Source: a virus (taxonomy: Duplodnaviria > Heunggongvirae > Uroviricota > Caudoviricetes). Taken from it: a DNA stretch of 49,084 nucleotides. The stretch is taken from IMG/VR virus record IMGVR_UViG_2851982317_000003. One strand, 5' to 3'. The position numbers and the translations under genes were made by a program. Positions within the stretch are counted from its first letter, which is position 1. Every line of letters starts with the position of its first letter. This document shows positions 2,490-18,468 of this stretch, in pieces. Below the pieces are notes generated by a model. That model ran no database searches. It was not told the origin of the DNA and saw only the letters and a list, made by a program, of their open reading frames with translations.

Positions 2490-2685
2490 TTCTGATCCTC
2501 TTCAAAAGGCTACCTGTTACTGGTCGATTTAAGTCAACCTTTACCGCTGATTCGTGGAACAGATATTCTCTTCCATCCTTAACCGGAGGAGGGAATATCC
2601 TGCATTCGCGCACCCATCGACGAACTGTTTCAAGGCTTCTTGGGCGTCGCTGGCGAGCGTTCCACTCCTGAAGTGTCAAGTACAT
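2467..2685 (-). CDS. xis: Excisionase
   Basis: 72-aa ORF (MYLTLQEWNARQRRPRSLETVRRWVRECRIFPPP...) overlapping int start, as in lambda. Confidence 0.95.
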   Translation of the reverse strand: MYLTLQEWNARQRRPRSLETVRRWVRECRIFPPPVKDGREYLFHESAVKVDLNRPVTGSLLKRIRNGKKAKS

Positions 2686-2710
2686 CGCAAAGTCTCCGCA
2701 ATTACACGCA

Positions 2711-2733
2711 AGAAAAAACCGCCATCAGGCGGC
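2711..2733 (-). terminator. Candidate intrinsic terminator on minus strand (stem CCGCC/GGCGG + T-run)
   Basis: Plus-strand AAAAAACCGCCATCAGGCGG reads on the minus strand as a GC hairpin followed by TTTTTT. Confidence 0.4.
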
Positions 2734-2892
2734 TTGGTGTTCTTTCAGTTCTTCAATTCGAATATTGGTTATGTCTGCATGTGCTATCTGCGCCCATATC
2801 ATCCAGTGGTCGTAGCAGTCGTTGATGTTCTCCGCTTCGATAACTCTGTTGAATGGCTCTCCATTCCATTCTCCTGTGACTCGGAAGTGCAT
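2725..2892 (-). CDS. Small hypothetical early-left ORF (55 aa), not in the supplied ORF track
   Basis: ATG...TGA read by hand (MHFRVTGEWNGEPFNRVIEAENINDCYDHW...); sits between xis and ea8.5 on the early-left strand. Confidence 0.35.
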   Translation of the reverse strand: MHFRVTGEWNGEPFNRVIEAENINDCYDHWMIWAQIAHADITNIRIEELKEHQAA

Positions 2893-2979
2893 TTATCATC
2901 TCCATAAAACAAAACCCGCCGTAGCGAGTTCAGATAAAATAAAACCCGCGAGTGCGAGGATTGTTATGTAATATTGGGT

Positions 2980-3261
2980 TTAATCATCTATATGTTTTGT
3001 ACAGAGAGGGCAAGTATCGTTTCCACCGTACTCGTGATAATAATTTTGCACGGTATCAGTCATTTCTCGCACATTGCAGAATGGGGATTTGTCTTCATTA
3101 GACTTATAAACCTTCATGGAATATTTGTATGCCGACTCTATATCTATACCTTCATCTACATAAACACCTTCGTGATGTCTGCATGGAGACAAGACACCGG
3201 ATCTGCACAACATTGATAACGCCCAATCTTTTTGCTCAGACTCTAACTCATTGATACTCAT
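2980..3261 (-). CDS. ea8.5: Lambda Ea8.5-like protein
   Basis: 93-aa ORF in the lambda ea8.5 position; length and sequence recalled as Ea8.5. Confidence 0.8.
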   Translation of the reverse strand: MSINELESEQKDWALSMLCRSGVLSPCRHHEGVYVDEGIDIESAYKYSMKVYKSNEDKSPFCNVREMTDTVQNYYHEYGGNDTCPLCTKHIDD

Positions 3262-3452
3262 TTATAAACTCCTTGCAATGTATGTCGTTTCAGCTAAACG
3301 GTATCAGCAATGTTTATGTAAAGAAACAGTAAGATAATACTCAACCCGATGTTTGAGTACGGTCATCATCTGACACTACAGACTCTGGCATCGCTGTGAA
3401 GACGACGCGAAATTCAGCATTTTCACAAGCGTTATCTTTTACAAAACCGATC

Positions 3453-4001
3453 TCACTCTCCTTTGATGCGAATGCCAGCGTCAGACATCATATGCAGATA
3501 CTCACCTGCATCCTGAACCCATTGACCTCCAACCCCGTAATAGCGATGCGTAATGATGTCGATAGTTACTAACGGGTCTTGTTCGATTAACTGCCGCAGA
3601 AACTCTTCCAGGTCACCAGTGCAGTGCTTGATAACAGGAGTCTTCCCAGGATGGCGAACAACAAGAAACTGGTTTCCGTCTTCACGGACTTCGTTGCTTT
3701 CCAGTTTAGCAATACGCTTACTCCCATCCGAGATAACACCTTCGTAATACTCACGCTGCTCGTTGAGTTTTGATTTTGCTGTTTCAAGCTCAACACGCAG
3801 TTTCCCTACTGTTAGCGCAATATCCTCGTTCTCCTGGTCGCGGCGTTTGATGTATTGCTGGTTTCTTTCCCGTTCATCCAGCAGTTCCAGCACAATCGAT
3901 GGTGTTACCAATTCATGGAAAAGGTCTGCGTCAAATCCCCAGTCGTCATGCATTGCCTGCTCTGCCGCTTCACGCAGTGCCTGAGAGTTAATTTCGCTCA
4001 C
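3453..4001 (-). CDS. ea22: Lambda Ea22-like protein
   Basis: 182-aa ORF in the lambda ea22 position; length matches. Confidence 0.8.
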   Translation of the reverse strand: MSEINSQALREAAEQAMHDDWGFDADLFHELVTPSIVLELLDERERNQQYIKRRDQENEDIALTVGKLRVELETAKSKLNEQREYYEGVISDGSKRIAKLESNEVREDGNQFLVVRHPGKTPVIKHCTGDLEEFLRQLIEQDPLVTIDIITHRYYGVGGQWVQDAGEYLHMMSDAGIRIKGE

Positions 4002-4219
4002 TTCGAACCTCTCTGTTTACTGATAAGTTCCAGATCCTCCTGGCAACTTGCACAAGTCCGACAACCCTGAACGGCCAAGCGTCTTCGTTCATCTATCGGA
4101 TCGCCACACTCACAACAATGAGTGGCAGATATAGCCTGGTGGTTCAGGCGGCGCATTTTTATTGCTGTGTTGCGCTGTAATTCTTCAATTTCTGATGCTG
4201 AATCAATGATGTCTGCCAT
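3998..4219 (-). CDS. orf73: TraR/DksA-type C4 zinc-finger protein (lambda Orf73-like)
   Basis: 73-aa ORF with CxxC...CxxC motif (CCECGDPIDERRRLAVQGCRTCASCQ). Confidence 0.8.
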   Translation of the reverse strand: MADIIDSASEIEELQRNTAIKMRRLNHQAISATHCCECGDPIDERRRLAVQGCRTCASCQEDLELISKQRGSK

Positions 4220-4272
4220 CTTTCATTAATCCCTGAATTGTTGGTTAATACGCTTGAGGGTGAATGCGAATA

Positions 4273-4295
4273 ATAAAAAAGGAGCCTGTAGCTCC
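4273..4295 (-). terminator. Candidate intrinsic terminator within the early-left operon
   Basis: Plus-strand AAAAAAGGAGCCTGTAGCTCC reads on the minus strand as a GGAGC/GCTCC hairpin followed by TTTTTT. Confidence 0.4.
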
Positions 4296-4317
4296 ATGAT
4301 GATTTTGTTTTTCATGC

Positions 4318-4533
4318 TCACCGTTCCTTAAAGACGCCGTTTAACATGCCGATCGCCAGGCTTAAATGAGTCGGTGTGAATCCCATCAGCGTTACCGTTT
4401 CGCGGTGCTTCTTCAGTACGCTACGGCAAATGTCATCGACGTTTTTATCCGGAAACTGCTGTCTGGCTTTTTTGATTTCAGAATTAGCCTGACGGGCAAT
4501 GCTGCGAAGGGCGTTTTCCTGCTGAGGTGTCAT
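4318..4533 (-). CDS. Lambda orf61-region small protein (start taken at internal Met MTPQQENAL; ORF extends to 4599)
   Basis: ORF in the lambda orf61 position; start choice uncertain. Confidence 0.6.
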   Translation of the reverse strand: MTPQQENALRSIARQANSEIKKARQQFPDKNVDDICRSVLKKHRETVTLMGFTPTHLSLAIGMLNGVFKER

Positions 4534-4609
4534 TGAACAAGTCCCATGTCGGCAAGCATAAGCACACAGAATATGAAGCCCGCTGCCAGAAAAATGCATT
4601 CAGTGGTTG

Positions 4610-4801
4610 TCATACCTGGTCTCTCTCATCTGCTTCTGCTTTCGCCACCATCATTTCCAGCTTTTGTGAAAGGGATGCGGCTAACGTGTGAAATTCTTCG
4701 TCTGTTTCTACTGGTATTGGCACAAACCTGACTCCAATTTGAGCGAGGCTATGTGCCATCTCGATACTCGTTCTTAACTCAACGGGAGATGCTTTGTGCA
4801 T
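4610..4801 (-). CDS. orf63: Lambda Orf63-like protein
   Basis: 63-aa ORF ([23 protein letters not shown]...) in the lambda orf63 position. Confidence 0.8.
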   Translation of the reverse strand: MHKASPVELRTSIEMAHSLAQIGVRFVPIPVETDEEFHTLAASLSQKLEMMVAKAEADERDQV

Positions 4802-4962
4802 ACAGCTCCCCGTTTATTATTTATCTCCTCAGCCAGCCGCTGTGCTTTCAGGGGATTTCGGATAACAGAAAGGCCGGGAAATACCCAGCCTCGCTTCGTA
4901 ACGGAGTAGACGAAAGTGATCGTGCCTACGCGGATATTATCGTGAGGATGTTTCATCGCCAT
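4774..4962 (-). CDS. orf60a: Lambda Orf60a-like protein
   Basis: 62-aa ORF just upstream of exo on the minus strand. Confidence 0.7.
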
Positions 4963-5633
4963 TGCTCCCCAAATACAAAACCAATTTCAGCCAGTGCCTC
5001 GTCCATTTTTTCGATGAACTCCGGCACCATCTCGTCAAAACTCGCCATGTACTTTTCATCCCGCTCAACCACGACATAATGCAGTCCTTCACGCTTCATA
5101 CGCGGGTCATAGTTGGCAAAGTACCAGGCATCTTTTCGCGTCACCCACATGCTGTACTGCACCTGGGCCATGTAAGCCGACTTTATGGCCTCGAAACCAC
5201 CGAGCCGGAACTTCATGAAATCCCGGGAGGTAAACGGGCATTTCAGCTCAAGGCCATTGCCGTCACTGCATAAACCATCGGGAGAGCAGGCGGTACGCAT
5301 ACTTTCGTCGCGATAGATGATCGGGGATTCAGTAACATTCACGCCGGAAGTGAATTCAAACAGAGTTCTGGCGTCGTTCTCGTACTGTTTTCCCCATGCC
5401 AGCGCCTTAGCATTAACTTCCGGAGCCACACCGGTGCAAACCTCAGCCAGCAGGGTGTGGAAGTAGGACATTTTCATGTCAGGCCACTTTTTTCCGGAGC
5501 GGGGTTTTGCTATCACATTGTGAACTTCTGAAGCGGTGATGACGCCGAGCCGTAATTTGTGCCACGCATCATCCCCCTGTTCGACAGCTCTCACGTCGAT
5601 TCCGGTACGCTGCAGGATAATGTCCGGTGTCAT
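4953..5633 (-). CDS. exo: Lambda exonuclease (Red-alpha)
   Basis: 226-aa ORF ([43 protein letters not shown]...). Confidence 0.97.
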
Positions 5634-6415
5634 GCAGCCACCTTCTGCTCAGTGGCTTTCTGTTTCAGGAATCCAAGAGCTTTCACTGCTTCGGCCTGTG
5701 TCAGTTCTGACGATGCGCGAATGTCGCGGCGAAATATCTGGGAACAGAGCGGCAATAAGTCGTCATCCCATGTTTTATCCAGGGCAATCAGCAGAGTGTT
5801 AATCTCCTGCATGGTTTCATCGTTAACCGGAGTGATGTCGCGTTCCGGCTGACGTTCTGCAGTGTATGCGGTATTTTCGACAATGCGCTCGGCTTCATCC
5901 TTGTCATAGATACCAGCAAATCCGAAGGCGAGACGGGCACACTGAATCATGGCTTTATGCCGTAACATCCGTTTGGGATGCGACTGCCACGGCCCCGTGA
6001 TTTCTCTGCCTTCGCGGGTTTTGAATGGTTCGCGGCGGCATTCATCCATCCACTCGGTAACGCAGATCGGATGATTGCGGTCTTTGCGGTAAATCCGGCA
6101 TGTGCAGGATTCGTTGTCCTGTTCAAAGTCCATGCCGTCAAACTGCTGGTTTTCGTTGATGATGCGGGACCAGCCATCAACGCCCACCACCGGAACGATG
6201 CCGTTCTGCTTATCAGGGAAGGCGTAAATTTCTTTCGTCCACGGATTAAGACCGTACTGGTTGGCGACGATCAGCAATGCGATGAACTGCGCATCGCTGG
6301 CATCACCTTTAAATGCCGTCTGGCGAAGAGTGGTGATCAGTTCCTGTGGGTCGACAGAATCCATGCCGACTCGTTCAGCCAGCTTCCCAGCCAGCGTTGC
6401 GAGTGCTGTACTCAT
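5630..6415 (-). CDS. bet: Bet single-strand annealing protein (Red-beta)
   Basis: 261-aa ORF ([37 protein letters not shown]...); overlaps exo start. Confidence 0.97.
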
Positions 6416-6420
6416 CCGTT

Positions 6421-6717
6421 TTATACCTCTGAATCAATATCAACCTGGTGGTGAGCAATGGTTTCAACCATGTACCGGATGTGTTCTGCCATGCGCTCCT
6501 GAAACTCAACATCGTCATCAAACGCACGGGTAATGGCTTTTTTGCTGGCCCCGTGGCGTTGCAAATGATCGATGCATAGCGATTCAAACAGGTGCTGGGG
6601 CAGGCCTTTTTCCATGTCGTCTGCCAGTTCTGCCTCTTTCTCTTCACGGGCGATCTGCTGGTAGTGACGCACCCAGCTCTGAGCCTCAAGACGATCCTGA
6701 ATGTAATAAGCGTTCAT
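6421..6717 (-). CDS. gam: Gam, RecBCD inhibitor (98-aa GamS-length form)
   Basis: [56 protein letters not shown]... Confidence 0.95.
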
Positions 6718-6792
6718 GGCTGAACTCCTGAAAATGGCTGTGAAAATATCGCCCGCGAAATGCCAGGCTGATTAGAAAAACAGGAAAGGGGA

Positions 6793-6999
6793 TTAGTGAT
6801 TCAGGCCGTTGCCGCGTCCGTCGAGAAAAACTTCCACGAGCAAGTCACGGGTATAAGTGCGCTCGATGCCGCGATGCAGATAAAGCCGTCCGCGTAAATT
6901 AGCTGATGCAGTCCAGGTACCATCTTTGTGTTTGACCAGCATTCCTGGCATGACCGCACCGCGATTAACGGTCTGCGTTCCGTAATGTTGATGAACCAT
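6793..6999 (-). CDS. kil: Kil-family host cell-division inhibitor (KilR-like), start at internal Met with AGGAG RBS
   Basis: 68-aa reading MVHQHYGTQTVNRGAVMPGMLVKHKDGTWTASANLRGRLYLHRG...VFLDGRG with KilR-like pattern (H..GT...PG..V.H...T..ASAN...LY...VFLGRDG); kil position next to gam. Confidence 0.6.
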   Translation of the reverse strand: MVHQHYGTQTVNRGAVMPGMLVKHKDGTWTASANLRGRLYLHRGIERTYTRDLLVEVFLDGRGNGLNH

Positions 7000-7259
7000 A
7001 AAAACTCCTGCCCGTAAGCTGGGCTGCTGAACATATAAAGACTTCTGCGCGTATTCAGGCGGTGGATGGCCGCCGGTTGTCATAACTAAGCCGCCTCGTT
7101 GAAGCGACTGAGGTATGAAGTGTTGAGTTGATTTCAGCTGGTCACACCGACGTTCACGCGTCCGCTTCACCCCTCGCACTCCCCGGAGCCTGCTGAAATT
7201 CAAGCTGCGGATCTAAGCGGTCATCGCAACGGTGAATCAGGTGATTGCCGTATCGTTGT

Positions 7260-7400
7260 GTTGTTGCGACATGGTGATAATAGCTATTGCTATTGATGAT
7301 ATCAATACTTATTGCTATTGATAGATGTGTTTTGATATTAAATATTTGATAGCAAAAAGAATTAATTTTGTGACTTGCATCGCATAGCGATAACTGAAGC
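7260..7400 (-). promoter_or_regulatory. Candidate OL/pL operator-promoter region (leftward early promoter)
   Basis: AT-rich block with repeated TTGCTATTG / TATTGAT motifs and an ATTGATGATATCAAT inverted repeat; the same words recur in the cI-cro intergenic region. Confidence 0.45.
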
Positions 7401-7444
7401 GGGGTTGTGGTGGTTTTTTGAACGGTGTGTGTGATGAGGGGAGG

Positions 7445-7472
7445 TAAAAGAAAACCCGGCACGGTGGCCGGG
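7445..7472 (-). terminator. Intrinsic terminator downstream of the DUF4411 gene (hairpin CCCGGC-ACGGTG-GCCGGG, U-run on minus strand; plausibly bidirectional)
   Basis: Perfect 6-bp GC stem with T-rich tracts on both sides, immediately after the stop of the 7478-7990 gene. Confidence 0.6.
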
Positions 7473-7477
7473 ACGTT

Positions 7478-7990
7478 TTATTTCAAAGAAAAATTATGAC
7501 TAGCGTATCTTGGAAGAAATTCATATAGTGTTAATGTCTTAACGCCGTGAGAAGCAGCAGCATCCGGGATCATTATTCTTTTTTTAGGTTTGCCACCGGA
7601 TGGTTTCTCATGGGTAATAATAGTATATCCATGTGTCATCGCATGGGCTATTAAAAAAGCATCTGCTTTTTCATGGCTTGCAAAATCAAACTTTGCCTTT
7701 TCGGTAACATCTAATTTAGTTGACCAATTTATTAACTTTGCATAATTTTCTATTGAACTATGCTCATCTTCGAAGAATGATGATGGTAACTCTTCTTTAA
7801 TCCATTTACACAATGGATCATCTTTTGCACATAGTTCTTTTTTTACAGCATTAATGCTATAAATCAGACCATTAATGTGTAAAGCGAGAAGAAAATCCCA
7901 AAATATTTTGCAATAATTGAAGTTATATGCAAAGTTTTTTGCCTCTATGAAGACATTACTATCAATTAAGAATTTTCCATTATGAATCAT
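7478..7990 (-). CDS. DUF4411-family (PIN-like fold) protein; second gene of the cI-proximal accessory cassette
   Basis: 170-aa ORF (MIHNGKFLIDSNVFIEAKNF...); start overlaps the stop of the upstream peptidase gene (ATGA), i.e. translationally coupled. Confidence 0.65.
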   Translation of the reverse strand: MIHNGKFLIDSNVFIEAKNFAYNFNYCKIFWDFLLALHINGLIYSINAVKKELCAKDDPLCKWIKEELPSSFFEDEHSSIENYAKLINWSTKLDVTEKAKFDFASHEKADAFLIAHAMTHGYTIITHEKPSGGKPKKRIMIPDAAASHGVKTLTLYEFLPRYASHNFSLK

Positions 7991-8581
7991 AGAGATTCTC
8001 GTTTTTTATAAAATTCAACAACTGTATCTGCTTTTACATTTAGCAGTACGCCTGCTTCCCTTAATGGTAATTGTTGAGACATTGCTTTGGAAATTATTAT
8101 ATTCGTAAGTTTTGGACTGTTGCGAACAGGTAATGTGTTAAAGAAAGAACCACCATTAGATTCTTTTTTGGGCTTATTGTAAGCTTGATCTTTAATTATC
8201 TCCAAAGTGTTTCTTTCTATCAAATCTAATTGTAACGCTTTGATTGCACAAGCGAAATCACTAACCTTAAATAACTTAGAAACCTCTTTTACTCGATAAT
8301 AATTATTATCGCTGGATGCATTAAGCCAGAAAGATTTGAAGAGATTATCAGGCATTAAGATTTCAGCAGCAACTTTATTACAAAAAGATTCTATGTTTTT
8401 TTCTGTGTCCCACCCAGAGACTCCATCGACTCCAAGCCAAAGATGAGCCACCTCATGAAATAATGTAAATACCTGCGCAGATAACGCGTCCGAGCTATTT
8501 ACAAAAATGATCGGAGCAACGCTATCAGATATACAGAAACCACGAAACTCTCGCGTGTCAAGTTTTCTTTTATTATTATTA

Positions 8582-8590
8582 CCCACAACA
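8582..8590. repeat. IS1 target-site duplication, left copy (CCCACAACA)
   Basis: 9-bp direct repeat abutting the IS1 left terminus. Confidence 0.9.
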
Positions 8591-8645
8591 GGTGATGCTG
8601 CCAACTTACTGATTTAGTGTATGATGGTGTTTTTGAGGTGCTCCA

Positions 8646-8921
8646 GTGGCTTCCATTTCCATCAGATGTCCTTCCTGCTCCGCTACTGAAGGCGTGGTGC
8701 GTAACGGCAAAAGCACTGCCGGACATCAGCGCTATCTCTGCTCTCACTGCCGTAAAACATGGCAACTGCAGTTCACTTACACCGCTTCTCAACCCGGTAC
8801 GCACCAGAAAATCATTGATATGGCCATGAATGGCGTTGGATGCCGGGCAACAGCCCGCATTATGGGCATTGGCCTCAACACGATTTTACGTCACTTAAAA
8901 AACTCAGGCCGCAGTCGGTAA
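8646..8921 (+). CDS. insA: IS1 InsA
   Basis: 91-aa [46 protein letters not shown]... Confidence 0.95.
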
Positions 8922-9343
8922 CCTCGCGCATACAGCCGGGCAGTGACGTCATCGTCTGCGCGGAAATGGACGAACAGTGGGGCTATGTCGGGGCTAAATC
9001 GCGCCAGCGCTGGCTGTTTTACGCGTATGACAGGCTCCGGAAGACGGTTGTTGCGCACGTATTCGGTGAACGCACTATGGCGACGCTGGGGCGTCTTATG
9101 AGCCTGCTGTCACCCTTTGACGTGGTGATATGGATGACGGATGGCTGGCCGCTGTATGAATCCCGCCTGAAGGGAAAGCTGCACGTAATCAGCAAGCGAT
9201 ATACGCAGCGAATTGAGCGGCATAACCTGAATCTGAGGCAGCACCTGGCACGGCTGGGACGGAAGTCGCTGTCGTTCTCAAAATCGGTGGAGCTGCATGA
9301 CAAAGTCATCGGGCATTATCTGAACATAAAACACTATCAATAA
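8840..9343 (+). CDS. insB: IS1 InsB (made as an InsAB' fusion by frameshifting)
   Basis: 167-aa ORF in the -1 frame overlapping insA. Confidence 0.9.
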
Positions 9344-9358
9344 GTTGGAGTCATTACC

Positions 9359-9367
9359 CCCACAACA
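9359..9367. repeat. IS1 target-site duplication, right copy (CCCACAACA)
   Basis: Identical 9-mer abutting the IS1 right terminus. Confidence 0.9.
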
Positions 9368-9934
9368 CCATTCTTGAAAACTAATACGCCAGTGTCTTCT
9401 ATTAGTTTTGCCACTTTAGAAAAATAGCTCTCAAAAGTGACATTTTTTATCTCTTTTTGTATATCAAAATGTATTGTGTTTGCTATGTCTGTAGCAACAA
9501 CCTTATAATTTAATTTTCTATTAAATTTAAATTTACCAATAAAATCGAGTGGATCATCATTACCATTTTCTCTTAAATAGTCTTTGTACCACTCAAGTTT
9601 ATATTCTATATCATAGTAAACATCAAAAAAATCTTTTCCTAACTCACGGCTATTTATAGCTTGCCTTAAGTCAGGGATCTTGGGTTTGGCTGGAGTTGGT
9701 GGCGTTTCAAGAAATAAAAAACCGAAAGGGATTCCTCCAATTTTTGCCAGTTTTTCTGCTGCGGATTTACTTACCACTCCGTTAAGAAATTTATTAATCT
9801 TTTTGGGCATGACTTGGTCAGCAAGAGTTTCGATAGAAACTCCTTGAGAATTTGCTATCCAATCAATCATCTTCCTAGACAATTGAAATTCAACCGCTGC
9901 CATGTTATCACCTAGTTAAAAAAACCTATTATTC

Positions 9935-9998
9935 AACAATTATTGTTGTGCACCTGATAGCTAACGTCAAGCCTAATTTATTGCCTTACTACAGTAAG
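9935..9998. promoter_or_regulatory. Two inverted repeats in the promoter-proximal gap between cI and the peptidase gene: CAACAATTATTGTTG (9935-9949) and CTTACTACAGTAAG (9985-9998)
   Basis: Perfect 7-1-7 and 6-2-6 palindromes in the 129-bp intergenic region; candidate operator sites. Confidence 0.35.
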
Positions 9999-10032
9999 CT
10001 GAAAAGCGAAGTGCATAATTTTGTTCTGATTT

Positions 10033-10761
10033 CTACCCATGCTTTCTATATGTCTGCGGCATGCTCCCGATGACTTTCCCGAAGATGAACACGCGGTTCA
10101 TCTCGTCTTTCTCGATCGGGTCCCACGGTGAGTAGCTCTTGTTATCAGAGATAACCAGCAGCTTATCCTTCATCATTTGCAGGCGTTTTACATGGGCGGT
10201 GTCGTCATACAGAAACGCATAGATACCATCACCGTCGAAAGATTTAACCGTGATATCAACGAACAGCAGATCACCTGGTTCGATCGTTCCTGACATGCTG
10301 TCACCACGCACGTTAATGATGCGGATATTTTCCGCCTTCCTGCCATCGAACATGTGACGAGCATCGTCAAACGAGTATTCAACCGAGCGTAGAACTTCTA
10401 CAAACTCACGGTTGATTACACCCGGCCCGGCACTGACTTCTATATCAAGAACGTCAATTTTGAAGTATTTGGAATGGCTGATAGCAGGCTTCCCTGATTG
10501 TTGACCGTCATTTCTCATCGGGCCTATGCCTGAAGAGAGCCATTCTGTTCGAACACCCAATGCATTAGCTATTTCAACAATTTTTGTTGAGCCGCGCGCG
10601 TTGCCGCTTGTCAGTCTCCAGATTGTGGGTTGAGCTACGCCAGACGCCTTTGCAAGAGCGCCTTGAGACATTCCAGATTGTTCCATCGCTAGATTTAAGC
10701 GATCAGCAAGAGTTTCTTTTTTCATAAGTTTTAATTTATACGCTTGCGTATTGATGGTCAA
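10033..10761 (-). CDS. cI: CI-type prophage repressor (N-terminal HTH + C-terminal LexA-like S24 self-cleaving domain); true start probably the internal Met MKKETLAD
   Basis: HTH (QGALAKASGVAQPTIWRL) and S24 motif (VRGDSMSGTIEPGDLLFVD...VKRL); divergent from the cro-like gene. Confidence 0.85.
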   Translation of the reverse strand: MTINTQAYKLKLMKKETLADRLNLAMEQSGMSQGALAKASGVAQPTIWRLTSGNARGSTKIVEIANALGVRTEWLSSGIGPMRNDGQQSGKPAISHSKYFKIDVLDIEVSAGPGVINREFVEVLRSVEYSFDDARHMFDGRKAENIRIINVRGDSMSGTIEPGDLLFVDITVKSFDGDGIYAFLYDDTAHVKRLQMMKDKLLVISDNKSYSPWDPIEKDEMNRVFIFGKVIGSMPQTYRKHG

Positions 10762-10829
10762 AACACGTTTTGCTATTGCTTGGATTAATACGCATTGCTA
10801 TTATTCATTCATTGCAATACCAATAGGAA
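10735..10829. promoter_or_regulatory. OR / pRM-pR divergent operator-promoter region
   Basis: Intergenic region between divergent cI and cro-like genes; palindrome ATACGCTTGCGTAT (10738-10751) and TTGCTATTG motifs. Confidence 0.55.
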
Positions 10830-11063
10830 TTGATAATGACAAATCAAACCATTCAACTCGCAATCAGTATTACAGGTAGTCAAAAACGACTGGCAGATCT
10901 ATGCGGTGTAGCCCAACCCACAGTTTGGCGTTGGCTACACGGTGGCGGAATTGATGCCCGCTATGTAATGAAAATTGTCTCAGCCACTGGTGGAAAGATT
11001 AAACCAGCAGATATTCGTCCCGACCTCGCACCATTGTTTAACGCGAGTAATTCTGCCGCCTAA
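10830..11063 (+). CDS. Cro-like / YdaS-like HTH regulator
   Basis: 77-aa HTH protein (QKRLADLCGVAQPTVWRWL) divergent from cI. Confidence 0.7.
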   Translation: MIMTNQTIQLAISITGSQKRLADLCGVAQPTVWRWLHGGGIDARYVMKIVSATGGKIKPADIRPDLAPLFNASNSAA

Positions 11064-11087
11064 ACTGCGGCGTTAACTGATAAGGCA

Positions 11088-11633
11088 ATGACTATGCAAC
11101 CACTTACATACCAACAGACTAGCGGATTTAGCCCGACTGCGGTGATAAATCGTTCTCAAACAAAACAGGTGCCAGGCCACGAAAAAATCCGTGATGCCGT
11201 CCGCGCCTGGTCGGCTGCAGATAATCAGGATGTTGTTGCCGCACTCATTGTGAATGAGTATCGGGAGCAGGGCGGCGGCACCATCGATTTCCCTGATGAT
11301 GTCAGCCGTGCACGCCAGAAGCTGTTCCGCTTCCTCGATAACAAATTCGATTCTGAAAAATACCGAAATAACGTGCGTGAACTGACCCCGGCAATTCTGG
11401 CGGTACTACCGCTGGAATATCGCGGTTACCTGGTTGAGCAGGATAGCTTCATGACTCGGTTGGCTGAAATGGAAAAGGAACTCAGTGAGGCAAAACAGGC
11501 TGTCATTCTCAACGCACCACGCCACCAGAAACTGAAGGAGATGAGTGAAGGTATTGTGTCGATGTTTCGTGTGGACCCGGATCTGGCTGGTCCATTGATG
11601 GCGATGGTTACCACCATGTTGGGGGCAATATGA
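11088..11633 (+). CDS. YdaT-like protein in the cII position
   Basis: 181-aa ORF with YdaT-like motifs (EYREQGGGTIDFP, LTPAILAVLPLEYR). Confidence 0.6.
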   Translation: MTMQPLTYQQTSGFSPTAVINRSQTKQVPGHEKIRDAVRAWSAADNQDVVAALIVNEYREQGGGTIDFPDDVSRARQKLFRFLDNKFDSEKYRNNVRELTPAILAVLPLEYRGYLVEQDSFMTRLAEMEKELSEAKQAVILNAPRHQKLKEMSEGIVSMFRVDPDLAGPLMAMVTTMLGAI

Positions 11634-11719
11634 CAGGTTTAAAAATGGCGAAAGTCGGTCTGCGGGAACAGAACCGACTTTCAGGTGCAAATCGTAACAC
11701 ACTCATTGCGGGAGGAATT

Positions 11720-12649
11720 ATGGCAAACACTGCTGAGATATTCAATTTTCCTGTGCCGGATGCGGCACAAAAGGAGCCGCGCGTGGCAGATCTCGATGAT
11801 GGTTATACGCGCATTGCAAATGAGTTGCTGGAAGCTGTAATGCTGGCCGGATTAACACAGCACCAGCTTCTGGTCTTCCTGGCTGTCATGCGCAAAACAT
11901 ATGGCTTTAATAAAAAACTGGATTGGGTGAGCAACGAGCAACTTTCCGAGTTGACCGGGATATTGCCGCACAAGTGTTCTGCTGCAAAAAGTGTTCTGGT
12001 AAAGCGTGGGATTTTTATTCAGAGCGGGCGGAATATAGGCATTAATAATGTGGTCAGTGAATGGTCAACATTACCCGAATCAGGTAAGAAAAATAAAGTT
12101 TACCTGAAAGAGGTAAATTTACCTGAATCAGGTAAGAAAAGTTTACCCAAATCAGGTAAAGGCACTTACCCGAATCAGGTAAACACAAAAGACAAACTAA
12201 CAAAAGACAATATAAAACCTTATTCGTCCGAGAATTCTGGCGAATCCTCTGACCTGCCAGAAAACGACCTTCCTGTGGTGAAAGCGGATGCTGCGATTCA
12301 GAACGGCAGCAAGTGGGGGACAGCAGAAGACCTGACCGCCGCAGAGTGGATGTTTGACATGGTGAAGACCATCGCGCCATCAGCCAGAAAACCGAATTTT
12401 GCAGGGTGGGCTAACGATATCCGTCTGATGCGTGAACGTGATGGACGTAACCACCGCGACATGTGTGTACTGTTCCGCTGGGCCTGCCAGGACAACTTCT
12501 GGTCCGGTAACGTGCTGAGTCCGGCCAAACTCCGCGACAAGTGGACCCAGCTCGAAATCAACCGAAACAAGCAACAGGCTGGCGTGACAGCCGGCAAACC
12601 AAAACTCGACCTGACAAACACAGACTGGATTTACGGGGTGGATCTATGA
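11720..12649 (+). CDS. O: Replication initiator O (non-lambda N-terminal iteron-binding domain, lambda-like C-terminal domain)
   Basis: ATG with GGAGG RBS; ori iterons inside the gene; C-terminus lambda O-like; stop overlaps the P start (ATGA). Confidence 0.85.
   Translation: MANTAEIFNFPVPDAAQKEPRVADLDDGYTRIANELLEAVMLAGLTQHQLLVFLAVMRKTYGFNKKLDWVSNEQLSELTGILPHKCSAAKSVLVKRGIFIQSGRNIGINNVVSEWSTLPESGKKNKVYLKEVNLPESGKKSLPKSGKGTYPNQVNTKDKLTKDNIKPYSSENSGESSDLPENDLPVVKADAAIQNGSKWGTAEDLTAAEWMFDMVKTIAPSARKPNFAGWANDIRLMRERDGRNHRDMCVLFRWACQDNFWSGNVLSPAKLRDKWTQLEINRNKQQAGVTAGKPKLDLTNTDWIYGVDL
12071..12183. repeat. ori iterons: five ~18-bp inverted-repeat units (TTACCCGAATCAGGTAAG and variants) followed by an A-rich tract
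   Basis: Units at about 12071, 12100, 12119, 12143 and 12166, then AAACACAAAAGACAAACTAACAAAAGACAATATAAAACC. Confidence 0.85.
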
Positions 12650-13347
12650 AAAACATCGCCGCACAGATGATTAACTTTGACCGTGAGCAGATGCGCCGGA
12701 TCGCCAACAACATGCCGGAACAGTACGACGAAAAGCCGCAGGTACAGCAGGTAGCGCAGATCATCAACGGTGTATTCAGCCAGTTGCTGGCAACTTTCCC
12801 TGCGAGCCTGGCTAACCGTGACCAGAACGAACTGAACGAAATTCGCCGCCAGTGGGTTCTGGCTTTCCGGGAAAACGGGATCACCACAATGGAACAGGTT
12901 AACGCTGGAATGCGCGTAGCCCGTCGGCAGAATCGACCATTCCTGCCATCACCCGGGCAGTTTGTCGCCTGGTGCCGGGAAGAAGCATCCGTTACCGCCG
13001 GGCTGCCAAACGCCAGCGAGCTGGTTGATATGGTTTACGAGTATTGCCGGAAGCGCGGGCTGTATCCGGATGCAGAGTCTTATCCGTGGAAATCAAACGC
13101 GCACTACTGGCTGGTTACCAACCTGTATCAGAACATGCGGGCCAATGCGTTGACTGACTCGGAATTACGGCGCAAGGCTGCCGATGAACTTGCCCATATG
13201 ACTGCGAGAATTAACCGTGGTGAGGCTATACCTGAACCAGTAAAACAACTTCCTGTCATGGGCGGTAGACCTCTAAATCGTGCACAGGCTCTGACGAAGA
13301 TTGCAGAAATCAAAGCTAAGTTCGGACTGAAAGGAGCCAGTGTATGA
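12646..13347 (+). CDS. P: Replication protein P (DnaB helicase loader)
   Basis: 233-aa reading from MKNIAAQMINFDREQMRRIANNMPEQYDEKPQVQQ..., lambda P-like. Confidence 0.95.
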   Translation: MKNIAAQMINFDREQMRRIANNMPEQYDEKPQVQQVAQIINGVFSQLLATFPASLANRDQNELNEIRRQWVLAFRENGITTMEQVNAGMRVARRQNRPFLPSPGQFVAWCREEASVTAGLPNASELVDMVYEYCRKRGLYPDAESYPWKSNAHYWLVTNLYQNMRANALTDSELRRKAADELAHMTARINRGEAIPEPVKQLPVMGGRPLNRAQALTKIAEIKAKFGLKGASV

Positions 13348-13637
13348 CGGGAAAAGAAGCAATTATTCATTACCTGGGGACGCATAAGAGCTTCTGTGCG
13401 CAGGACGTTGCTGCGGTAACAGGCGCAACAGTAACCAGCATAAATCAGGCTGCGGCTAAAATGGCGCGGACAGGAATCTTAGTTATTGATGGTAAGGTCT
13501 GGCGAACGGTGTATTACCGGTTCGCTACCAAGGAAGAACGGGAAGGAAAGGTGAGCACGAATCTGATTTTCAAGGAGTGTCGCCAGAGTGCCGCGATGAA
13601 GCGGGTGTTGGCATTTTATCGCGGCAATTTTCAATAG
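13344..13637 (+). CDS. ren: Ren
   Basis: 97-aa ORF overlapping the P stop (ATGA); lambda Ren-like. Confidence 0.9.
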   Translation: MTGKEAIIHYLGTHKSFCAQDVAAVTGATVTSINQAAAKMARTGILVIDGKVWRTVYYRFATKEEREGKVSTNLIFKECRQSAAMKRVLAFYRGNFQ

Positions 13638-13674
13638 ACTATGTACATAAAAATATCATTTTTTTAATACATGT

Positions 13675-13881
13675 CTAATTATTGGACGAAATTGGTTTTT
13701 GCTTTGGTTTAGTTAGCCTAGCAATCAAGCCAGAGGCAATAATGATGATCCAAGCAATTTGATGCAATGCTACTCCAATATAAGAACCTTTATAGATAAT
13801 AAAGGCATAGATCGCTAGAAACGAAATAAATATCCATAACGAAAGTTGATAAATTTTGGCGCGCATATTTAATCCAATCAA
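13675..13881 (-). CDS. Small hydrophobic two-TM membrane protein (hypothetical)
   Basis: 68-aa ORF in an AT-rich tract; two hydrophobic segments. Confidence 0.35.
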   Translation of the reverse strand: MIGLNMRAKIYQLSLWIFISFLAIYAFIIYKGSYIGVALHQIAWIIIIASGLIARLTKPKQKPISSNN

Positions 13882-14122
13882 TCAGAAAGACGAGTAATCA
13901 TAGAGGTACTATCACCCGGGTAACTATTGCTATTATGAACGGATAGGATAGAGGCTTCAATAACATATGCATCAAGTATGATGGAATATGTAGATGAAAA
14001 TGACTTGTGTCAAATTTGTGGAAATGAGTACCATGTTTCTCTGAAATTGATGTCGTTAATGGCTAGTGATAGTGAACTTTTTTACTTTATAATTCCTTTG
14101 GTTATAACAATAAGGTAAATTT

Positions 14123-14683
14123 ATGAAGAAGATAATATTATTAGCCATGATTATTGGTTCTTTAACAGGTTGCGCTAGTGTGCCACCATTGAATTTTTCA
14201 ACACCTAACGTGGGAGTTAGCCAGAAAAAAATAGATGCTGAAATTAAGTCATTAACGGTATCACTTGCTCGTCCAGATGAGCAGAAAGGGGATATCACTG
14301 CTGGTATGGAGGCTATAACTCCAATTTGGCGTGAATCTTTGCAGGAAGCACTCGACCGAATGACTATTTTTCGTGATAGTTCACCAAATACGGTTAGCTT
14401 AAATGTTAAAGTGTTGGCTCTTGACGTTCCTGCTTTTGGTGTTTCAATGACAACTAAAGCAATTGCAAGGTATGAAATAATCAACCGTGCGAATGGTGAT
14501 ATTATATATACGCAGGATATTGAGTCTACCGGTACTGTTCCAGCCAGTTACGCATTCTACGGTATTGTTCGAGCACGCGAATCTGTTAATCGCGCGGTGC
14601 AAAACAACATAACGCAGTTCTTGCAAGCATTAGAAAGTGTTGATCTTTCTCGTCCAATGTTTCCTGTTAGGGTAGCTAAATGA
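14123..14683 (+). CDS. Lipoprotein of unknown function (signal peptide + lipobox LTGC)
   Basis: 186-aa ORF MKKIILLAMIIGSLTGCAS...; good RBS; in AT-rich accessory DNA after ren. Confidence 0.7.
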   Translation: MKKIILLAMIIGSLTGCASVPPLNFSTPNVGVSQKKIDAEIKSLTVSLARPDEQKGDITAGMEAITPIWRESLQEALDRMTIFRDSSPNTVSLNVKVLALDVPAFGVSMTTKAIARYEIINRANGDIIYTQDIESTGTVPASYAFYGIVRARESVNRAVQNNITQFLQALESVDLSRPMFPVRVAK

Positions 14684-15132
14684 AGCGATTATTCGTAATT
14701 GCTCCACTCTTAGTGTTGGTTGGATGCGCACAAAATATATCGCCAAATAATTATTCTGTTGGCTCTGTGGGCATGGTTAATCGAACTATCGCTGGTACAG
14801 TTATTAGTGCCAGGGGGGTTGATATCAGTGGGACTTCCGCGTTAGGCGGGACTGCTGGGGCTGCCGTGGGGGCAACCGCTGGTTCTGCGCTTGGTGGGGG
14901 AGTTCGTTCTAATATCGTTGGTGCCGTTGGTGGTGCAGTCATTGGTGGTATTGCCGGGGCAGCAATCGAATCTTCAGTAACAAAACAAACAGGCATGGAA
15001 TATGTTGTCGAAACTGAGAATGGGAATTTAATGACCATTGTTCAAGGCAAAGATCCGTTATTTACTCAAGGAAGTAAGGTCCTTGTTTTATACGGAAACT
15101 CTTCTCGCATAATAACAGACCCGCGTCACTAA
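14680..15132 (+). CDS. SlyB-like glycine-zipper outer-membrane lipoprotein
   Basis: 150-aa ORF with lipobox (LVGCAQ) and Gly-zipper (GGTAGAAVGATAGSALGGGV...GAVGGAVIGGIAGAAI); start overlaps the upstream stop (ATGA). Confidence 0.7.
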   Translation: MKRLFVIAPLLVLVGCAQNISPNNYSVGSVGMVNRTIAGTVISARGVDISGTSALGGTAGAAVGATAGSALGGGVRSNIVGAVGGAVIGGIAGAAIESSVTKQTGMEYVVETENGNLMTIVQGKDPLFTQGSKVLVLYGNSSRIITDPRH

Positions 15133-15322
15133 CATACCTTTTGATTTTGTAAAATCAATTCGTAATAATAAAGTCATCGGAGCTTGAACAACTCCGGTGA
15201 CTTCTGCGCTAAACGGGGACGTTTATGCGCACATACAATCCAAACTCTCTTCTCCCTTCACAGATGCAGAAATGCACCTGCGATTTTTTGCATCCAGCGT
15301 CTGACCTCTGCGGAGGTGAAGC

Positions 15323-15778
15323 GTGAACCTACCACAAGATGGCATCAAACTGCATCGCGGTAACTTCACCGCTATCGGCCAGCAGATCCAGCCTTATCTG
15401 GAGGACGGAAAATGCTTTCGCATGGTGCTTAAACCGTGGCGTGAGAAACGCAGTCTTTCCCAGAATGCACTCAGCCACATGTGGTACAGCGAAATCAGTG
15501 AATACCTCATCAGCAGGGGGAAATCGTTCGCTACCGCAGCATGGGTAAAAGATGCTCTCAAACACACATACCTCGGTTATGAAACCAAGGACCTGGTTGA
15601 TGTCGTAACCGGCGAAATCACTACTATCCAGTCGTTACGCCATACTTCCGATCTTGATACCGGAGAGATGTATGTCTTCCTGTGTAAGGTTGAAGCCTGG
15701 GCGATGAATATTGGCTGCCACCTGACTATTCCGCAGAGCTGCGAGTTCCAGCTGCTGCGCGACAAGCAGGAGGCGTAA
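15323..15778 (+). CDS. ybcN: YbcN-like nin-region protein (DLP12 ybcN homolog)
   Basis: 151-aa [58 protein letters not shown]... Confidence 0.75.
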
Positions 15779-15948
15779 TGGCTACACCGCTTATTCGTGT
15801 CATGAACGGACACATCTACAGAGTACCAAATCGTCGTAAGCGTAAGCCTGAGCTGAAGCCATCCGAAATACCAACACTGCTCGGATATACCGCTAGCCTG
15901 GTTGATAAAAAATGGTTGCGACTGGCAGCAAGGAGGAATCATGGCTGA
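15778..15948 (+). CDS. ninE: NinE-like small protein (56 aa), not in the supplied ORF track
   Basis: ATG overlapping the ybcN stop (TAATG); [37 protein letters not shown]... Confidence 0.6.
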   Translation: MATPLIRVMNGHIYRVPNRRKRKPELKPSEIPTLLGYTASLVDKKWLRLAARRNHG

Positions 15949-16231
15949 TTTGAGAAAAGCAGCGCGTGGTCGGGAATGCCAGGTAAGAATCACTGGCGTA
16001 TGTAATGGCAACCCTGAAACGTCTGTACTGGCACATATCCGGCTGGCTGGATTGTGCGGCACCGGTATTAAACCGCCAGACCTTATTGCCACCATTGCCT
16101 GTTCTGCCTGTCACGACGAAATCGACCGCCGCACGCATTTTGTCGATGCTGAGTACGCAAAAGAATGCGCGCTGGAAGGTATGGCGAGAACGCAGGTTAT
16201 CTGGCTGAAAGAGGGGGTAATCAAGGCGTGA
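15941..16231 (+). CDS. ybcO: YbcO-like (DUF1364) nin-region protein; start taken at [10 protein letters not shown]
   Basis: Cys/His-rich protein ([11 protein letters not shown]...[11 protein letters not shown]) as in DLP12 ybcO. Confidence 0.8.
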
Positions 16232-16590
16232 ATACTTACCACATCACACTACCCTGGCCTCCGAGCAATAACCGCTATTACCGCCATAATCGCGGGCGCA
16301 CACACATCAGCGCAGAAGGGCAGGCATACCGCGATAACGTCACCCGAATCATTAAAAACGCAATGCTGGATATCGGCCTGGCTATGCCAGTGAAAATCCG
16401 TATTGAGTGCCACATGCCGGATCGCCGTCGCCGTGACCTGGATAATCTGCAAAAGGCCGCTTTTGACGCACTCACCAAAGCAGGTTTCTGGCTGGATGAT
16501 GCTCAGGTCGTTGATTACCGCGTTGTGAAGATGCCTGTTACCAAAGGTGGGAGGCTGGAACTGACCATCACCAAAATGGGGAATGAATGA
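16228..16590 (+). CDS. rusA: RusA Holliday-junction resolvase (GTG start overlapping the ybcO stop)
   Basis: 120-aa reading [37 protein letters not shown]... Confidence 0.9.
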
Positions 16591-16727
16591 TGTTTGAGTC
16601 TTATATGGCAGAGCGTCTTCGCCGCCGCTGGGTGCGCCTGCGCTTATATCGTTTTCCTGGTTCTGTTTTGACCGATTACCGGATACTGAAGAATTACGCC
16701 AAAACCCTGACAGGAGCAGGAGTATGA
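16587..16727 (+). CDS. ylcG: YlcG-like small protein (46 aa), not in the supplied ORF track
   Basis: ATGATG start overlapping the rusA stop; [25 protein letters not shown]... Confidence 0.5.
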
Positions 16728-16812
16728 AGTCAGAGATAACAATCAACTAATACTATTTTGTTGATTTTTGCTTGTAATTGGCGTTCTGGTCTGATTTTTG
16801 TGGAGTAAGTTG

Positions 16813-17196
16813 ATGCGTGATATTCAGATGGTTCTTGAGCGTTGGGGAGCGTGGGCGGCTAATAATCATGAAGATGTGACCTGGTCGTCCATTGCCGCCG
16901 GTTTTAAGGGATTAATTACTTCAAAAGTAAAATCTCGCCCGCAATGTTGTGACGATGACGCGATGATCATTTGCGGGTGCATGGCCCGTCTGAAAAAGAA
17001 CAACAGCGATTTGCACGATTTATTAGTAGATTATTATGTAGTCGGTATGACATTCATGTCACTGGCAGGTAAGCATTGCTGCTCTGATGGTTATATCGGG
17101 AAAAGGTTACAGAAGGCTGAGGGTATAATTGAAGGGATGTTAATGGCATTAGATATCCGGTTAGAGATGGATATCGTTGTTAATAACTCTAATTAA
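16813..17196 (+). CDS. quuD: Late-gene antiterminator Q (DLP12 QuuD / phage-21-82 type)
   Basis: 127-aa reading [33 protein letters not shown]...[16 protein letters not shown]. Confidence 0.85.
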
Positions 17197-17204
17197 TATG
17201 CCAG

Positions 17205-17260
17205 TTGTTTACTAAAAGTTATTAAAAATGGGGCGTTGCAACGCCCCCAAAAATAAAGGG
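17205..17260 (+). promoter_or_regulatory. Candidate pR'/qut region containing a perfect 18-bp palindrome GGGGCGTTGCAACGCCCC (17230-17247)
   Basis: Immediately downstream of Q, where lambdoid phages carry pR' and the Q-utilisation site. Confidence 0.35.
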
Positions 17261-17377: not shown

Positions 17378-17385
17378 TAATCAGA

Positions 17386-18468
17386 TTAGAACTGATACAC
17401 CAGACCTACAGCGACGATGTCGTCGGTATCAATACCAGCTGTTTTGGTAAACTTACTATCGTCAATTAAGTTGATTTTGTAATCAACAAAAGTGGACATG
17501 TTTTTATTAAAGTAGTAAGTAGCACCGACATCGACATACTTGACTAAGTCTCGGTCACCATGAACACCAAGGTCTTTACCTTTTGACTGAAGGTAAGCAA
17601 CAGATGGTCGCAGACCGAAGTCAAACTGATATTGTGCTACTGCTTCAAAGTTTTGTGCTTTGTTTGCAATATGGTTATTACCAAAAACGGTCATATTCTG
17701 AGTTTCAGAATATGTGGTAGCCAGATAGATATTGTTCGCATCATATTTCAGGCCTGCAGCCCATACTTCCGCATTTTTGCCGGAGGCATTGAATTTGCTC
17801 TTACCATAGGCGACCTGACCGTCAGTGCGATCTGATTTAGCATAGGTTGCACCCACGCCGAATCCTTCATACTCATAAGTAGTGGAGAAACCGAAACCAT
17901 CACCATTGGCTTCAGTTACGTCAGTGCGGTCATTTTTACCCTGATACTGAGCAGCAAAGTTCAGGCCATCGACCAGACCAAAGAAGTCGTTGTTACGATA
18001 GGTTGCAACACCAGTGGTGCGACCAGTCATGAACACATCTGTTTGGGTCCAGGTATCGCCACCGAATTCTGGCAGAACGTCAGTCCACGCACCGATGTCG
18101 TATGCTACACCGTAGTTACGGCCGTAATCGATTGAGCCGTAGTCACCGAATTTCAGGCCTGCAAATGCAAGACGGGTTTTGTCTTTGGAGGAACCTTGAG
18201 ATTCAGCGCGGTTGCCTTTGAATTCATATTCCCACTGACCGAAACCAGTCAGTTGATCGTTGATTTGGGTTTCACCTTTGAAGCCAAGACGGGCATAAGT
18301 AGTATCACCATCATCTGCATCATTAGAGGAGAAGTAGTGCTTAGCATTAACTTTCCCGTACAGATCCAGCTTGTTACTGTCTTTATTATAAATTTCAGCT
18401 GCCTGAGCAGACATCGCCATCAGTACTGATGCAGCTACAGCAGAAATTGCCACTGTTAATTTTTTCAT
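17386..18468 (-). CDS. nmpC: OmpC-family trimeric porin, phage-borne (Lc / NmpC-like lysogenic-conversion gene)
   Basis: 360-aa ORF with signal peptide ([23 protein letters not shown]), AEIYNKD...C-terminal VYQF; between Q and holin in opposite orientation. Confidence 0.9.

Follow-up and report, generated by a model that had tools for sequence, protein, structure and literature searches.

The window analysed here is a 49,084-nt stretch of viral DNA (Caudoviricetes; IMG/VR record IMGVR_UViG_2851982317_000003). It is a lambdoid prophage that is most similar to phages of the genus Bievrevirus, for example 4A7 and Perceval (~97% identity). We focused on positions 6,793 to 7,472, where a putative promoter pL, a leader of about 270 nt and a kil gene follow one another on the minus strand at the start of the early-left operon. 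An earlier note on this DNA had described a KilR-like gene with a good ribosome-binding site (RBS) directly after pL. It had also remarked on an arginine-rich stretch in the same frame upstream of that gene, reminiscent of the RNA-binding motif of N proteins, and had left the means of early-left antitermination unclear. We asked whether the stretch between pL and kil is read as protein or acts as RNA.

The kil gene, of the KilR/phi80 type that encodes FtsZ inhibitors, occupies 6999..6793 on the minus strand (68 codons including the stop). The sequence AGGAG at 7009..7005 stands 5 nt ahead of its ATG, and both this Shine-Dalgarno (SD) sequence and the AUG are unpaired in the centroid fold. The product matches PHROG 294, "Kil protein for bacterial septation inhibition", with E = 2.4e-38 over profile positions 4-80 of 83, and is 85% identical to HK225 Kil and 42% identical to phi80 Kil. 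The Kil homologues of HK225, phi80, HK639 and KO-TP1 begin at the same methionine as that at 6999, with the start pattern M-x-x-(Q)-HYGT, and the gene agrees with the KilR-type family in length (~68-73 residues), in its place upstream of gam and in its location in the early-left operon. We collected relatives by an exact-pattern scan of viral contigs and aligned 43 unique sequences carrying the leader of the window. Among them, variable sites in kil fall at codon positions 1/2/3 as 8/11/35, with 35 of 54 at the third position, and indels are all multiples of three except in one disrupted sequence (L041). The NCBI Prokaryotic Genome Annotation Pipeline (PGAP) also annotates a 68-aa Kil, and it calls no gene in the leader. 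With these results, the 68-codon KilR-like gene with its RBS is confirmed. Rac KilR is an inhibitor of FtsZ and cell division (PMC12482147, PMC5793797), and from its family membership the Kil of the window would be expected to inhibit FtsZ and cell division as well.

A promoter scan placed a sigma-70-like pL on the minus strand upstream of the leader (-35 TTGATA at 7305..7300, a 17-nt spacer, -10 TATTAT at 7282..7277; 10 of 12 matches), with a predicted start site near 7270. The site lies at an OL-type operator region (7271..7357) that contains the repeats TAGCTATTGCTATT and TACTTATTGCTATT and a palindrome at 7330-7357; the operator repeats D2, D8, I1 and I17 are common to the pL side and to the cI/cro intergenic region at 10754-10804. 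Among the relatives, the operator stretch occurs as two immunity types (24 versus 19 sequences), and conserved DNA begins downstream of ~7270. The location within operator repeats and the sharp shift in conservation at ~7270 both fit the pL call. The first gene after pL is kil. The span 6793-7462 that had been singled out does hold these features, but its upper bound does not stand: 7462 falls inside a strong intrinsic terminator found by a terminator scan at 7472..7455 on the minus strand (CCCGGCCACCGTGCCGGG then TTTTCTTTT), which closes the cI-side cargo unit upstream of pL and is not part of the pL transcript. The minus strand would then be laid out as a cargo-operon terminator, OL and pL, a leader of ~270 nt, and a 68-codon KilR-family gene translated from its own SD. 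Between pL and the kil start there is no convincing gene on the minus strand, and downstream of kil follow gam (at 6717), bet, exo and homologues of lambda orf60a, orf63 and orf61.

The kil frame does stay open for about 68 codons upstream, as had been noted. It extends to a TTG at 7203, giving a 136-codon frame (7203..6793, minus strand) whose extension reads ...RLRGVRGVKRTRERRCDQLK.... In 14 of the 43 relatives, C7110T makes a CAG of this frame into an in-frame TAG, and frame-breaking indels occur in six sequences: a 5-nt insertion after 7132 (three), a 1-nt insertion after 7174 (one) and a 2-nt deletion at 7046-7045 (two). Variable sites in the extension are distributed over codon positions 1/2/3 as 10/7/10, without the third-position bias seen in kil. 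The PHROG Kil profile aligns with residues 60-136 of the long open reading frame (ORF) only, a Pfam scan of the long ORF gave no match, and neither resource detected a family beyond those Kil residues. Five percent of shuffles of the 204 nt upstream of kil likewise have no in-frame stop. The Arg-rich motif (~7191..7141) coincides with a GC-rich near-palindrome, and the 3' half of the Arg-rich frame overlaps a non-coding cassette, described below, which precedes unrelated genes in other phages. Because the frame is interrupted or shifted in many close relatives and shows no coding substitution pattern, we conclude that it is not a gene. The 136-codon frame appears to join kil by chance to an open stretch of the leader. 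It is neither an extension of Kil nor a gene of the N type, and its arginines would be a by-product of the GC-rich, partly palindromic stretch CGGACGCGUGAACGUCGG. The proposal of an N-type motif thus found no support in the TAG, the indels, the substitution pattern, the family searches or the PGAP calls. Records that give 136 to 140 codons are over-extended, and the gene is 68 codons. In Perceval (OV696612) and in 1W and 3W (OM475428, OM475430), the leader and kil are annotated as one 140-aa "FtsZ inhibitor protein Kil" or "membrane carboxypeptidase", names and lengths that on the evidence here are over-extended or mistaken. Two other candidates in the leader were rejected: a compensatory pair C7186-G7165, which would involve adjacent bases unable to pair, and a leaderless ORF, MSQQHNDTAIT, at the transcript start, whose ATG is ATA in 28 of the 43 relatives.

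A shorter product of the same stretch could act as a minimal N-like RNA-binding antiterminator. The candidate would start at GTG 7170, read MKRTRERRCDQLKSTQHFIP and end at 7110 where the TAG is present. Its place right after pL is the usual location of an N gene. Nine of 20 residues are Arg or Lys, a density reached by 0.8% of shuffles for a window of residues chosen after the fact. The sequence GGGGAG stands 8 nt ahead of GTG 7170, which G7170A changes to ATG in six relatives, and the two commonest polymorphisms in the stretch, at 7186 and 7165, are synonymous in this frame. In the same relatives, 9 of the 14 polymorphic sites in 7203..7108 are non-synonymous or nonsense, a 1-nt insertion falls within the stretch, and a 5-nt insertion falls just behind it. 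PHROG and Pfam gave no family match, there is no boxA, and no paired site occurs in the pR operon. Lambda N requires regions that bind NusA and RNA polymerase, and a peptide of 20-30 residues would be without them. We therefore regard translation of a very short peptide from the Arg-rich stretch, and an N-like role for it, as highly improbable.

If the leader does not encode N, the antiterminator might lie elsewhere. We scanned 30 query ORFs over 2554-19273, which includes the pL and pR operons, Q and the holin, with PHROG and Pfam and found no N, cIII, ral or sieB family, in line with what had been reported from the translations; no separate conventional N homologue was found among the early ORFs scanned. 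A boxA-like element (YGCTCTTWA, at most one mismatch), which it had been proposed to seek in the leader, occurs neither in 7270..7000 on the minus strand nor after cro, and the number of matches in the window is that expected by chance. The gap between cro and the cII-like (YdaT-type) gene is only 24 nt, so that nutR and tR1 of the lambda kind would not fit. The locus resembles the pL-nutL-N region of lambda in having an operator-controlled pL at the same place relative to cI, the downstream block gam-bet-exo-orf60a-orf63-orf61, and a terminator in the operon. It differs in having no N homologue, boxA, sieB, ral, ea10 or cIII, and its kil is of the KilR type whereas lambda Kil has 47 residues; where lambda has about 2.2 kb, the window has 0.48 kb.

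The authors of a survey of lambdoid phages assume a put mechanism where N is absent (PMC12315714), and put-mediated read-through depends on the zinc-binding domain of the beta-prime subunit of RNA polymerase (PMC9378689). The window resembles HK022 and HK639 in being lambdoid without N and in having a conserved non-coding RNA immediately behind pL, and the downstream cassette is the same in HK639 and in many contigs with an HK639-type putL. We built a put covariance model (R1) from HK022 putL and putR and five HK639-type putL sequences from cassette-bearing contigs and ran it with filters off. In contrast to those phages, the window gave a best match of only 11.3 bits (E = 0.33) at 28555-28583, inside structural genes, and 11 related loci gave none; a model of seven sequences could miss a very divergent antiterminator RNA. 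A second copy of the leader, as an analogue of nutR or putR, was found neither in the pR operon nor elsewhere in the window. In the stretches fetched from the kil-proximal phages SEN34, Mulock, phiES15, mEp237 and HK225 there was likewise neither an annotated N nor a match to put, and other enterobacterial phages also place kil near pL without an annotated N. From these sequence searches, the assumption of put by default is not supported for this lineage.

The earlier note had placed an intrinsic terminator in the early-left operon, and the scan bears this out. The first credible one, GGAGCTACAGGCTCC then TTTTTTATTA, lies at 4295..4281 on the minus strand (GGAGC-UACAG-GCUCC then UUUUUUAUUAUU), between the orf61-like and DksA/TraR-like genes and after the recombination genes; the remaining minus-strand candidates downstream of pL and ahead of this site either are weak or fall within coding sequence. 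Since no credible terminator precedes it, an antiterminator is not needed for kil, gam, bet, exo and the three small genes, which would be transcribed straight from pL. Only DksA-like, ea22-like and integration genes lie beyond it. Transcription may pass the site by leakage through its 5-bp stem, start from separate promoters or depend on an unrecognised factor. Overall, the phage would run without an N/nut or put system, and the genes past 4295..4281 would rely on partial read-through or promoters of their own.

The leader is a mosaic of about 150 nt specific to this E. coli prophage lineage, followed by a copy of a 120-nt cassette. The first part, segment I (7270..7120, minus strand), is non-coding and holds CAACAACACAAC at 7266..7255 and the GC-rich stretch at ~7191..7141. 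A sensitive search with the leader detected segment I in close E. coli relatives only, where it is conserved across immunity types; its first ~35 nt are replaced in the L045/O157 variant. Diversity in the core of segment I (7236-7121) is 0.022, compared with 0.053 at third positions of kil and 0.005 at first and second positions, and is thus ~2.4-fold lower than at synonymous sites, which indicates that this segment is probably under moderate constraint.

Constraint of this kind would also be expected if segment I, alone or with the cassette, were a new cis-acting antiterminator RNA in the role of putL, making polymerase resistant to the 4295..4281 terminator and to Rho. Segment I occupies the place of putL, and contig L016 carries an HK639-type putL directly followed by the same cassette; the operon also has a terminator while having neither N nor put. 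Yet segment I resembles put neither in sequence nor in structure, it matched no Rfam family and contains no boxA, its folding is no better than that of shuffles (z = -0.55), and no partner element is present in the pR operon. Relatives are more than 95% identical here, so that covariation is not available as evidence. Further, the cassette in the window is not preceded by the terminator that stands before it in N- or put-carrying phages, which fits an operon not built around processive antitermination. We consider an antiterminator role for segment I improbable.

At its predicted 5' end, the pL transcript contains a side feature. CAACAACACAAC (7266..7255, minus strand) is a perfect 12-nt complement of nt 72-83 of E. 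coli GcvB (the R1 seed), for which CACAACA has been reported as the consensus target (PMC4104026). The predicted duplex has an energy of -39.1 kcal/mol versus -27.9 ± 3.9 for shuffles, and the motif is kept in 41 of the 43 relatives and replaced in the O157/L045 variant. The transcript could be a GcvB target or a sponge upon induction, analogous to AgvB though unrelated in sequence. The prophage small RNAs (sRNAs) Pas, AgvB and AsxR were considered and rejected, as they are located in the late region and are unrelated.

The second part of the leader is its most widely conserved one. In the sensitive search, only the 3' part of the leader (~7119..7040) recurred in distant phages, namely HK225, phi80, Enterobacter phages and Klebsiella KO-TP1. 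More than 120 viral contigs contain an exact 26-mer of the cassette, with different terminators ahead of it and unrelated genes after it. Across contigs the layout is constant: CAUACC, a hairpin, a near-invariant GUUAUGACAACC-GGCGG-CCAUCCA-CCGCC, a variable spacer, a GCAGAAGUCUU box, a small GC hairpin, an SD and a gene start. In the window, the 5' half (7119..7053, minus strand) comprises hairpin 1 (7118..7080), with a lower stem CAUA/UAUG, a variable upper stem and a conserved AUG at 7083..7081, in agreement with the predicted fold, and hairpin 2 (7074..7058, GGCGG-CCAUCCA-CCGCC). The 3' half (7052..7000) comprises the variable spacer, the GCAGAAGUCUU box, a small pre-RBS hairpin at 7024..7010 (GCCC-AGCUUAC-GGGC) and the SD of kil.

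Structure in the cassette is supported by covariation. Among 27 distinct sequences, six pairs of hairpin 1 have changes on both sides, 97.9% of cells pair compared with 32-51% when partners are slid, and none of 500 shuffles reached the covariation score. The upper stem of hairpin 1 is entirely different between cassette versions, and in the listed sequences the pre-RBS hairpin occurs in four interchangeable versions, with stems GCC/GGC, CGCG/CGCG or GCCC/GGGC, ahead of unrelated genes. Most of these sequences were gathered by exact pattern and are a biased sample. A covariance model (R2) made from the cassette alignment matched the window once, at 7119..7053 (91 bits, E = 4e-22), and found one cassette per fetched locus, including phi80 and an HK639 copy that had escaped the exact pattern. 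Lambda has no cassette and gave only a marginal 14-bit match upstream of cIII. Rfam gave no match for the whole window at gathering thresholds, and with E allowed to reach 10, the leader and the cassette of HK225 returned chance-level matches only (CRISPR repeat, snoRNA, rsmX, ROSE). In terms of sequence, this structured cassette upstream of kil, with its strong covariation and near-invariant core, is the sole new element of the locus.

The cassette tends to lie close to kil. A kil homologue is found within 1 kb downstream in 105 of 128 loci, usually at a distance of 0.1-1 kb, and in the window 84 nt separate the AUG of the cassette from kil. In HK225 and phi80 the cassette is directly behind an intrinsic terminator (tL1A in phi80, after the annotated N gene) and upstream of kil or of small genes preceding kil; phi80, HK225, HK639 and the majority of other contigs have a stem and T-run before it. 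No terminator occupies this place in the window and its close relatives, where the cassette is joined to segment I at ...CAACACTT|CATACC (in RNA, ...CAACACUU|CAUACC). The kil gene does not require the cassette, because it is absent from the kil-proximal phages SEN34, Mulock, phiES15 and mEp237. A promoter inside the cassette, as in a terminator-plus-promoter "moron", is unlikely, since inspection by eye revealed no consistent -35/-10 pair on either strand.

Structured leaders are known from phage early operons, such as the RNase III site in the lambda N leader and the RNase III sites of T7. Like these, the cassette belongs to a polycistronic early transcript and places a conserved, irregular hairpin (~14 pairs, covarying stems) before the start of a gene. 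It is unlike them in its near-invariant 30-mer with an AUG and a mini-ORF, and in occurring once per fetched locus rather than between every gene. Cis control of the processing, stability or translation of the kil block are its most likely roles, as judged from its sequence and position. In such a role, the cassette would affect the transcript of the toxic kil block in cis, either by altering its processing or stability or by making translation depend on the sequestered AUG and the mini-ORF.

Two further observations concern the hairpins. In a subset of phages, namely HK639 (L004, 2250-2278) and contigs L024, L075, L101, L119 and L156, a T-run of 5-8 residues comes after hairpin 2. The HK639 record annotates the hairpin together with the T-run as a terminator, and the copy in the window has no T-run; whether hairpin 2 acts as a terminator may thus differ from phage to phage. 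Another conserved module located between genes, GCCGGCCATCCAATCGCC...AAAGCATTTCTCCCGCATCAGCGGGTAACTAC...GAGGG..ATG, stands before other early-left genes in KO-TP1 (L128, 1215-1283) and many viral-contig loci; it appears as read-through peptides of the type "KAFLPHQRVTTEG" and has the GGCCAUCCA motif in common with hairpin 2 of the cassette.

The cassette AUG at 7083..7081 opens the reading MTTGGHPPP, which in many phages ends ...EVLY* before the next gene. In the window this mini-ORF is in frame with kil, and this is the reason for the long open frame seen earlier. One explanation of the cassette is that the AUG is used: MTTGGHPPP... would be translated and would control the kil block, or here would yield an extended Kil of 96 residues. 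In such a gate, arrival of a ribosome or its stalling at Pro-Pro-Pro would remodel hairpin 2 and the RBS region. All cassettes have this AUG unchanged, the nine codons that it opens are retained in the different cassette types, and six spacer classes of differing length preserve the ...EVLY* frame; about as many do not, so that roughly half shift the downstream conserved box to another frame. A looser scan, which went beyond the search pattern, recovered ACC>ACT (twice), GGC>GGT, CCG>UCG (with a G-U pair retained) and a 3-nt in-frame insertion, variants that hint at some constraint at the peptide level. Where hairpin 2 carries a T-run, as in the annotated terminator of HK639, translation could oppose termination. 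Against use of the AUG, it lies within the lower stem of hairpin 1, and the GAGG upstream of it is not conserved, since cassettes with other stem versions have GAGU or GAGC instead. In two relatives, the 2-nt deletion disrupts the fusion to kil. The near-total conservation of wobble bases points to constraint at the level of RNA, and the cassette sample is biased by its exact-pattern collection. Translation from AUG 7083 is therefore, in our estimate, unlikely.

Proline-rich leader peptides of the mgtP/mgtL type gate downstream expression, and attenuation of the pyrBI type is coupled to translation. The cassette is similar in having a short upstream ORF with consecutive proline codons overlapping a GC hairpin, followed by a T-run in some relatives. 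It differs in that translation of the mini-ORF is putative, the AUG is sequestered in a stem and hairpin 2 of the window has no T-run. A broader proposal would make the whole pL leader an RNA-only control device for the toxic kil block, either with segment I, with or without the cassette, as a put-independent cis RNA that alters elongation or termination, or with MTTGGHPPP and hairpin 2 as a translation-sensing gate (of EF-P or proline supply, for example) that decides expression of Kil and the genes behind it. We rate this proposal as quite unlikely.

The nearest biological parallel to the locus is the Rac prophage. Both have a KilR-family gene early in the leftward operon, YdaS/YdaT-like genes at the cro and cII positions, no annotated N, and a kil with a long untranslated 5' region; Rac kilR is silenced via NusG and Rho, and its 5' untranslated region (5'UTR) yields the sRNA KilS (PMC5793797, PMC8175672). 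By analogy, the long untranslated leader of the window could be an attenuator dependent on Rho and NusG that silences the toxic kil against a leaky pL. A gene of the same family does lie behind 270 nt of untranslated leader in the window, and both leader ends are relatively C-rich (C/G 1.56-1.62). Relative to the strand as a whole, these ratios rank no higher than the 85th-88th percentile, the centre of the leader is rich in G (C/G 0.56, 2nd-4th percentile), and the profile resembles that of a rut site only mildly. The two leaders share no sequence: matches to the Rac kilR 5'UTR and KilS in a blastn-short search were all of 9 nt or less. Moreover, Rac has sieB, ydaF and ydaG between its repressor gene and kilR, and Rho dependence is not readable from sequence. 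Attenuation by Rho is plausible but, on balance, rather unlikely.

Taken together, the results lead us to favor, with a probability of roughly 0.7, the reading that the stretch from pL to kil is an untranslated RNA leader rather than a hidden N-like gene, and that the phage has no dedicated early antiterminator. Several of the points given above weigh against it: the mini-ORF is in frame with kil in 41 of the 43 relatives, rare variants of the cassette tend to be synonymous or to keep the frame, and segment I is less diverse than synonymous sites without detectable structure. The density of Arg and Lys, the two synonymous polymorphisms and G7170A in the Arg-rich stretch, and the small size of the put model also count on that side. 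The same leader is present in 2224 of 5426 complete E. coli genomes (41%), including O157 prophages, and because of this prevalence the architecture can be considered ordinary; in E. coli 203740 (NZ_CP025913) the leader is 100% identical. A very common group of E. coli prophages would then have an early-left operon with no N and no detectable put RNA. The cassette upstream of its toxic inhibitor of cell division has no counterpart among Rfam families and is conserved in phi80-, HK639- and HK225-type phages. Should it control expression of Kil, it would be a convenient case in which to study how a prophage toxin is regulated after transcription; otherwise, the locus is an ordinary arrangement of promoter, leader and gene.

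The remaining features lie around this locus. On the cI side, all on the minus strand, are a cI-like repressor gene (10761..10033), a gene for a helix-turn-helix/Peptidase_M78 protein (ImmA/IrrE-like) that is split by IS1 (~8646-9343) into parts at 9903..9337 and 8604..7987, and a DUF4411 ORF (7990..7478; Pfam match) whose stop is 6 nt before the terminator at 7472..7455. The slot between cI and pL (7478-9903) holds other cargo in relatives, SIR2 in an O157 prophage and an ASCH-domain gene in 4A7.

On the pR side, the stop codon of cro is in the loop of a hairpin, GCCGC-CTAAACT-GCGGC (11040-11090), which resembles the pre-cassette terminators (AGCCGCCTAACCAGCGGCTTTTTT) without a T-run and could be a decayed tR1-like terminator. 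The early-right genes are separated from Q (16798-17196) by three minus-strand ORFs (15329-16746) for which PHROG gave no match, and a full-length Gram-negative porin gene (18468..17386) lies between Q and the holin. Transcription from pR to Q, without any N, would have to cross 1.4 kb of antisense genes and terminator-like sites at 15067-15085 and 15265-15282. Within a 486-nt gap after the ren-like gene (13638-14122), TAACTATTGCTATT at 13921-13934 is identical to the OL repeat TAGCTATTGCTATT at 13 of 14 positions, and promoter-like sites are present nearby on both strands (14013..13985, 13960..13932 and 14066-14093). This gap may contain a third repressor-controlled promoter, in a region equivalent to nin.

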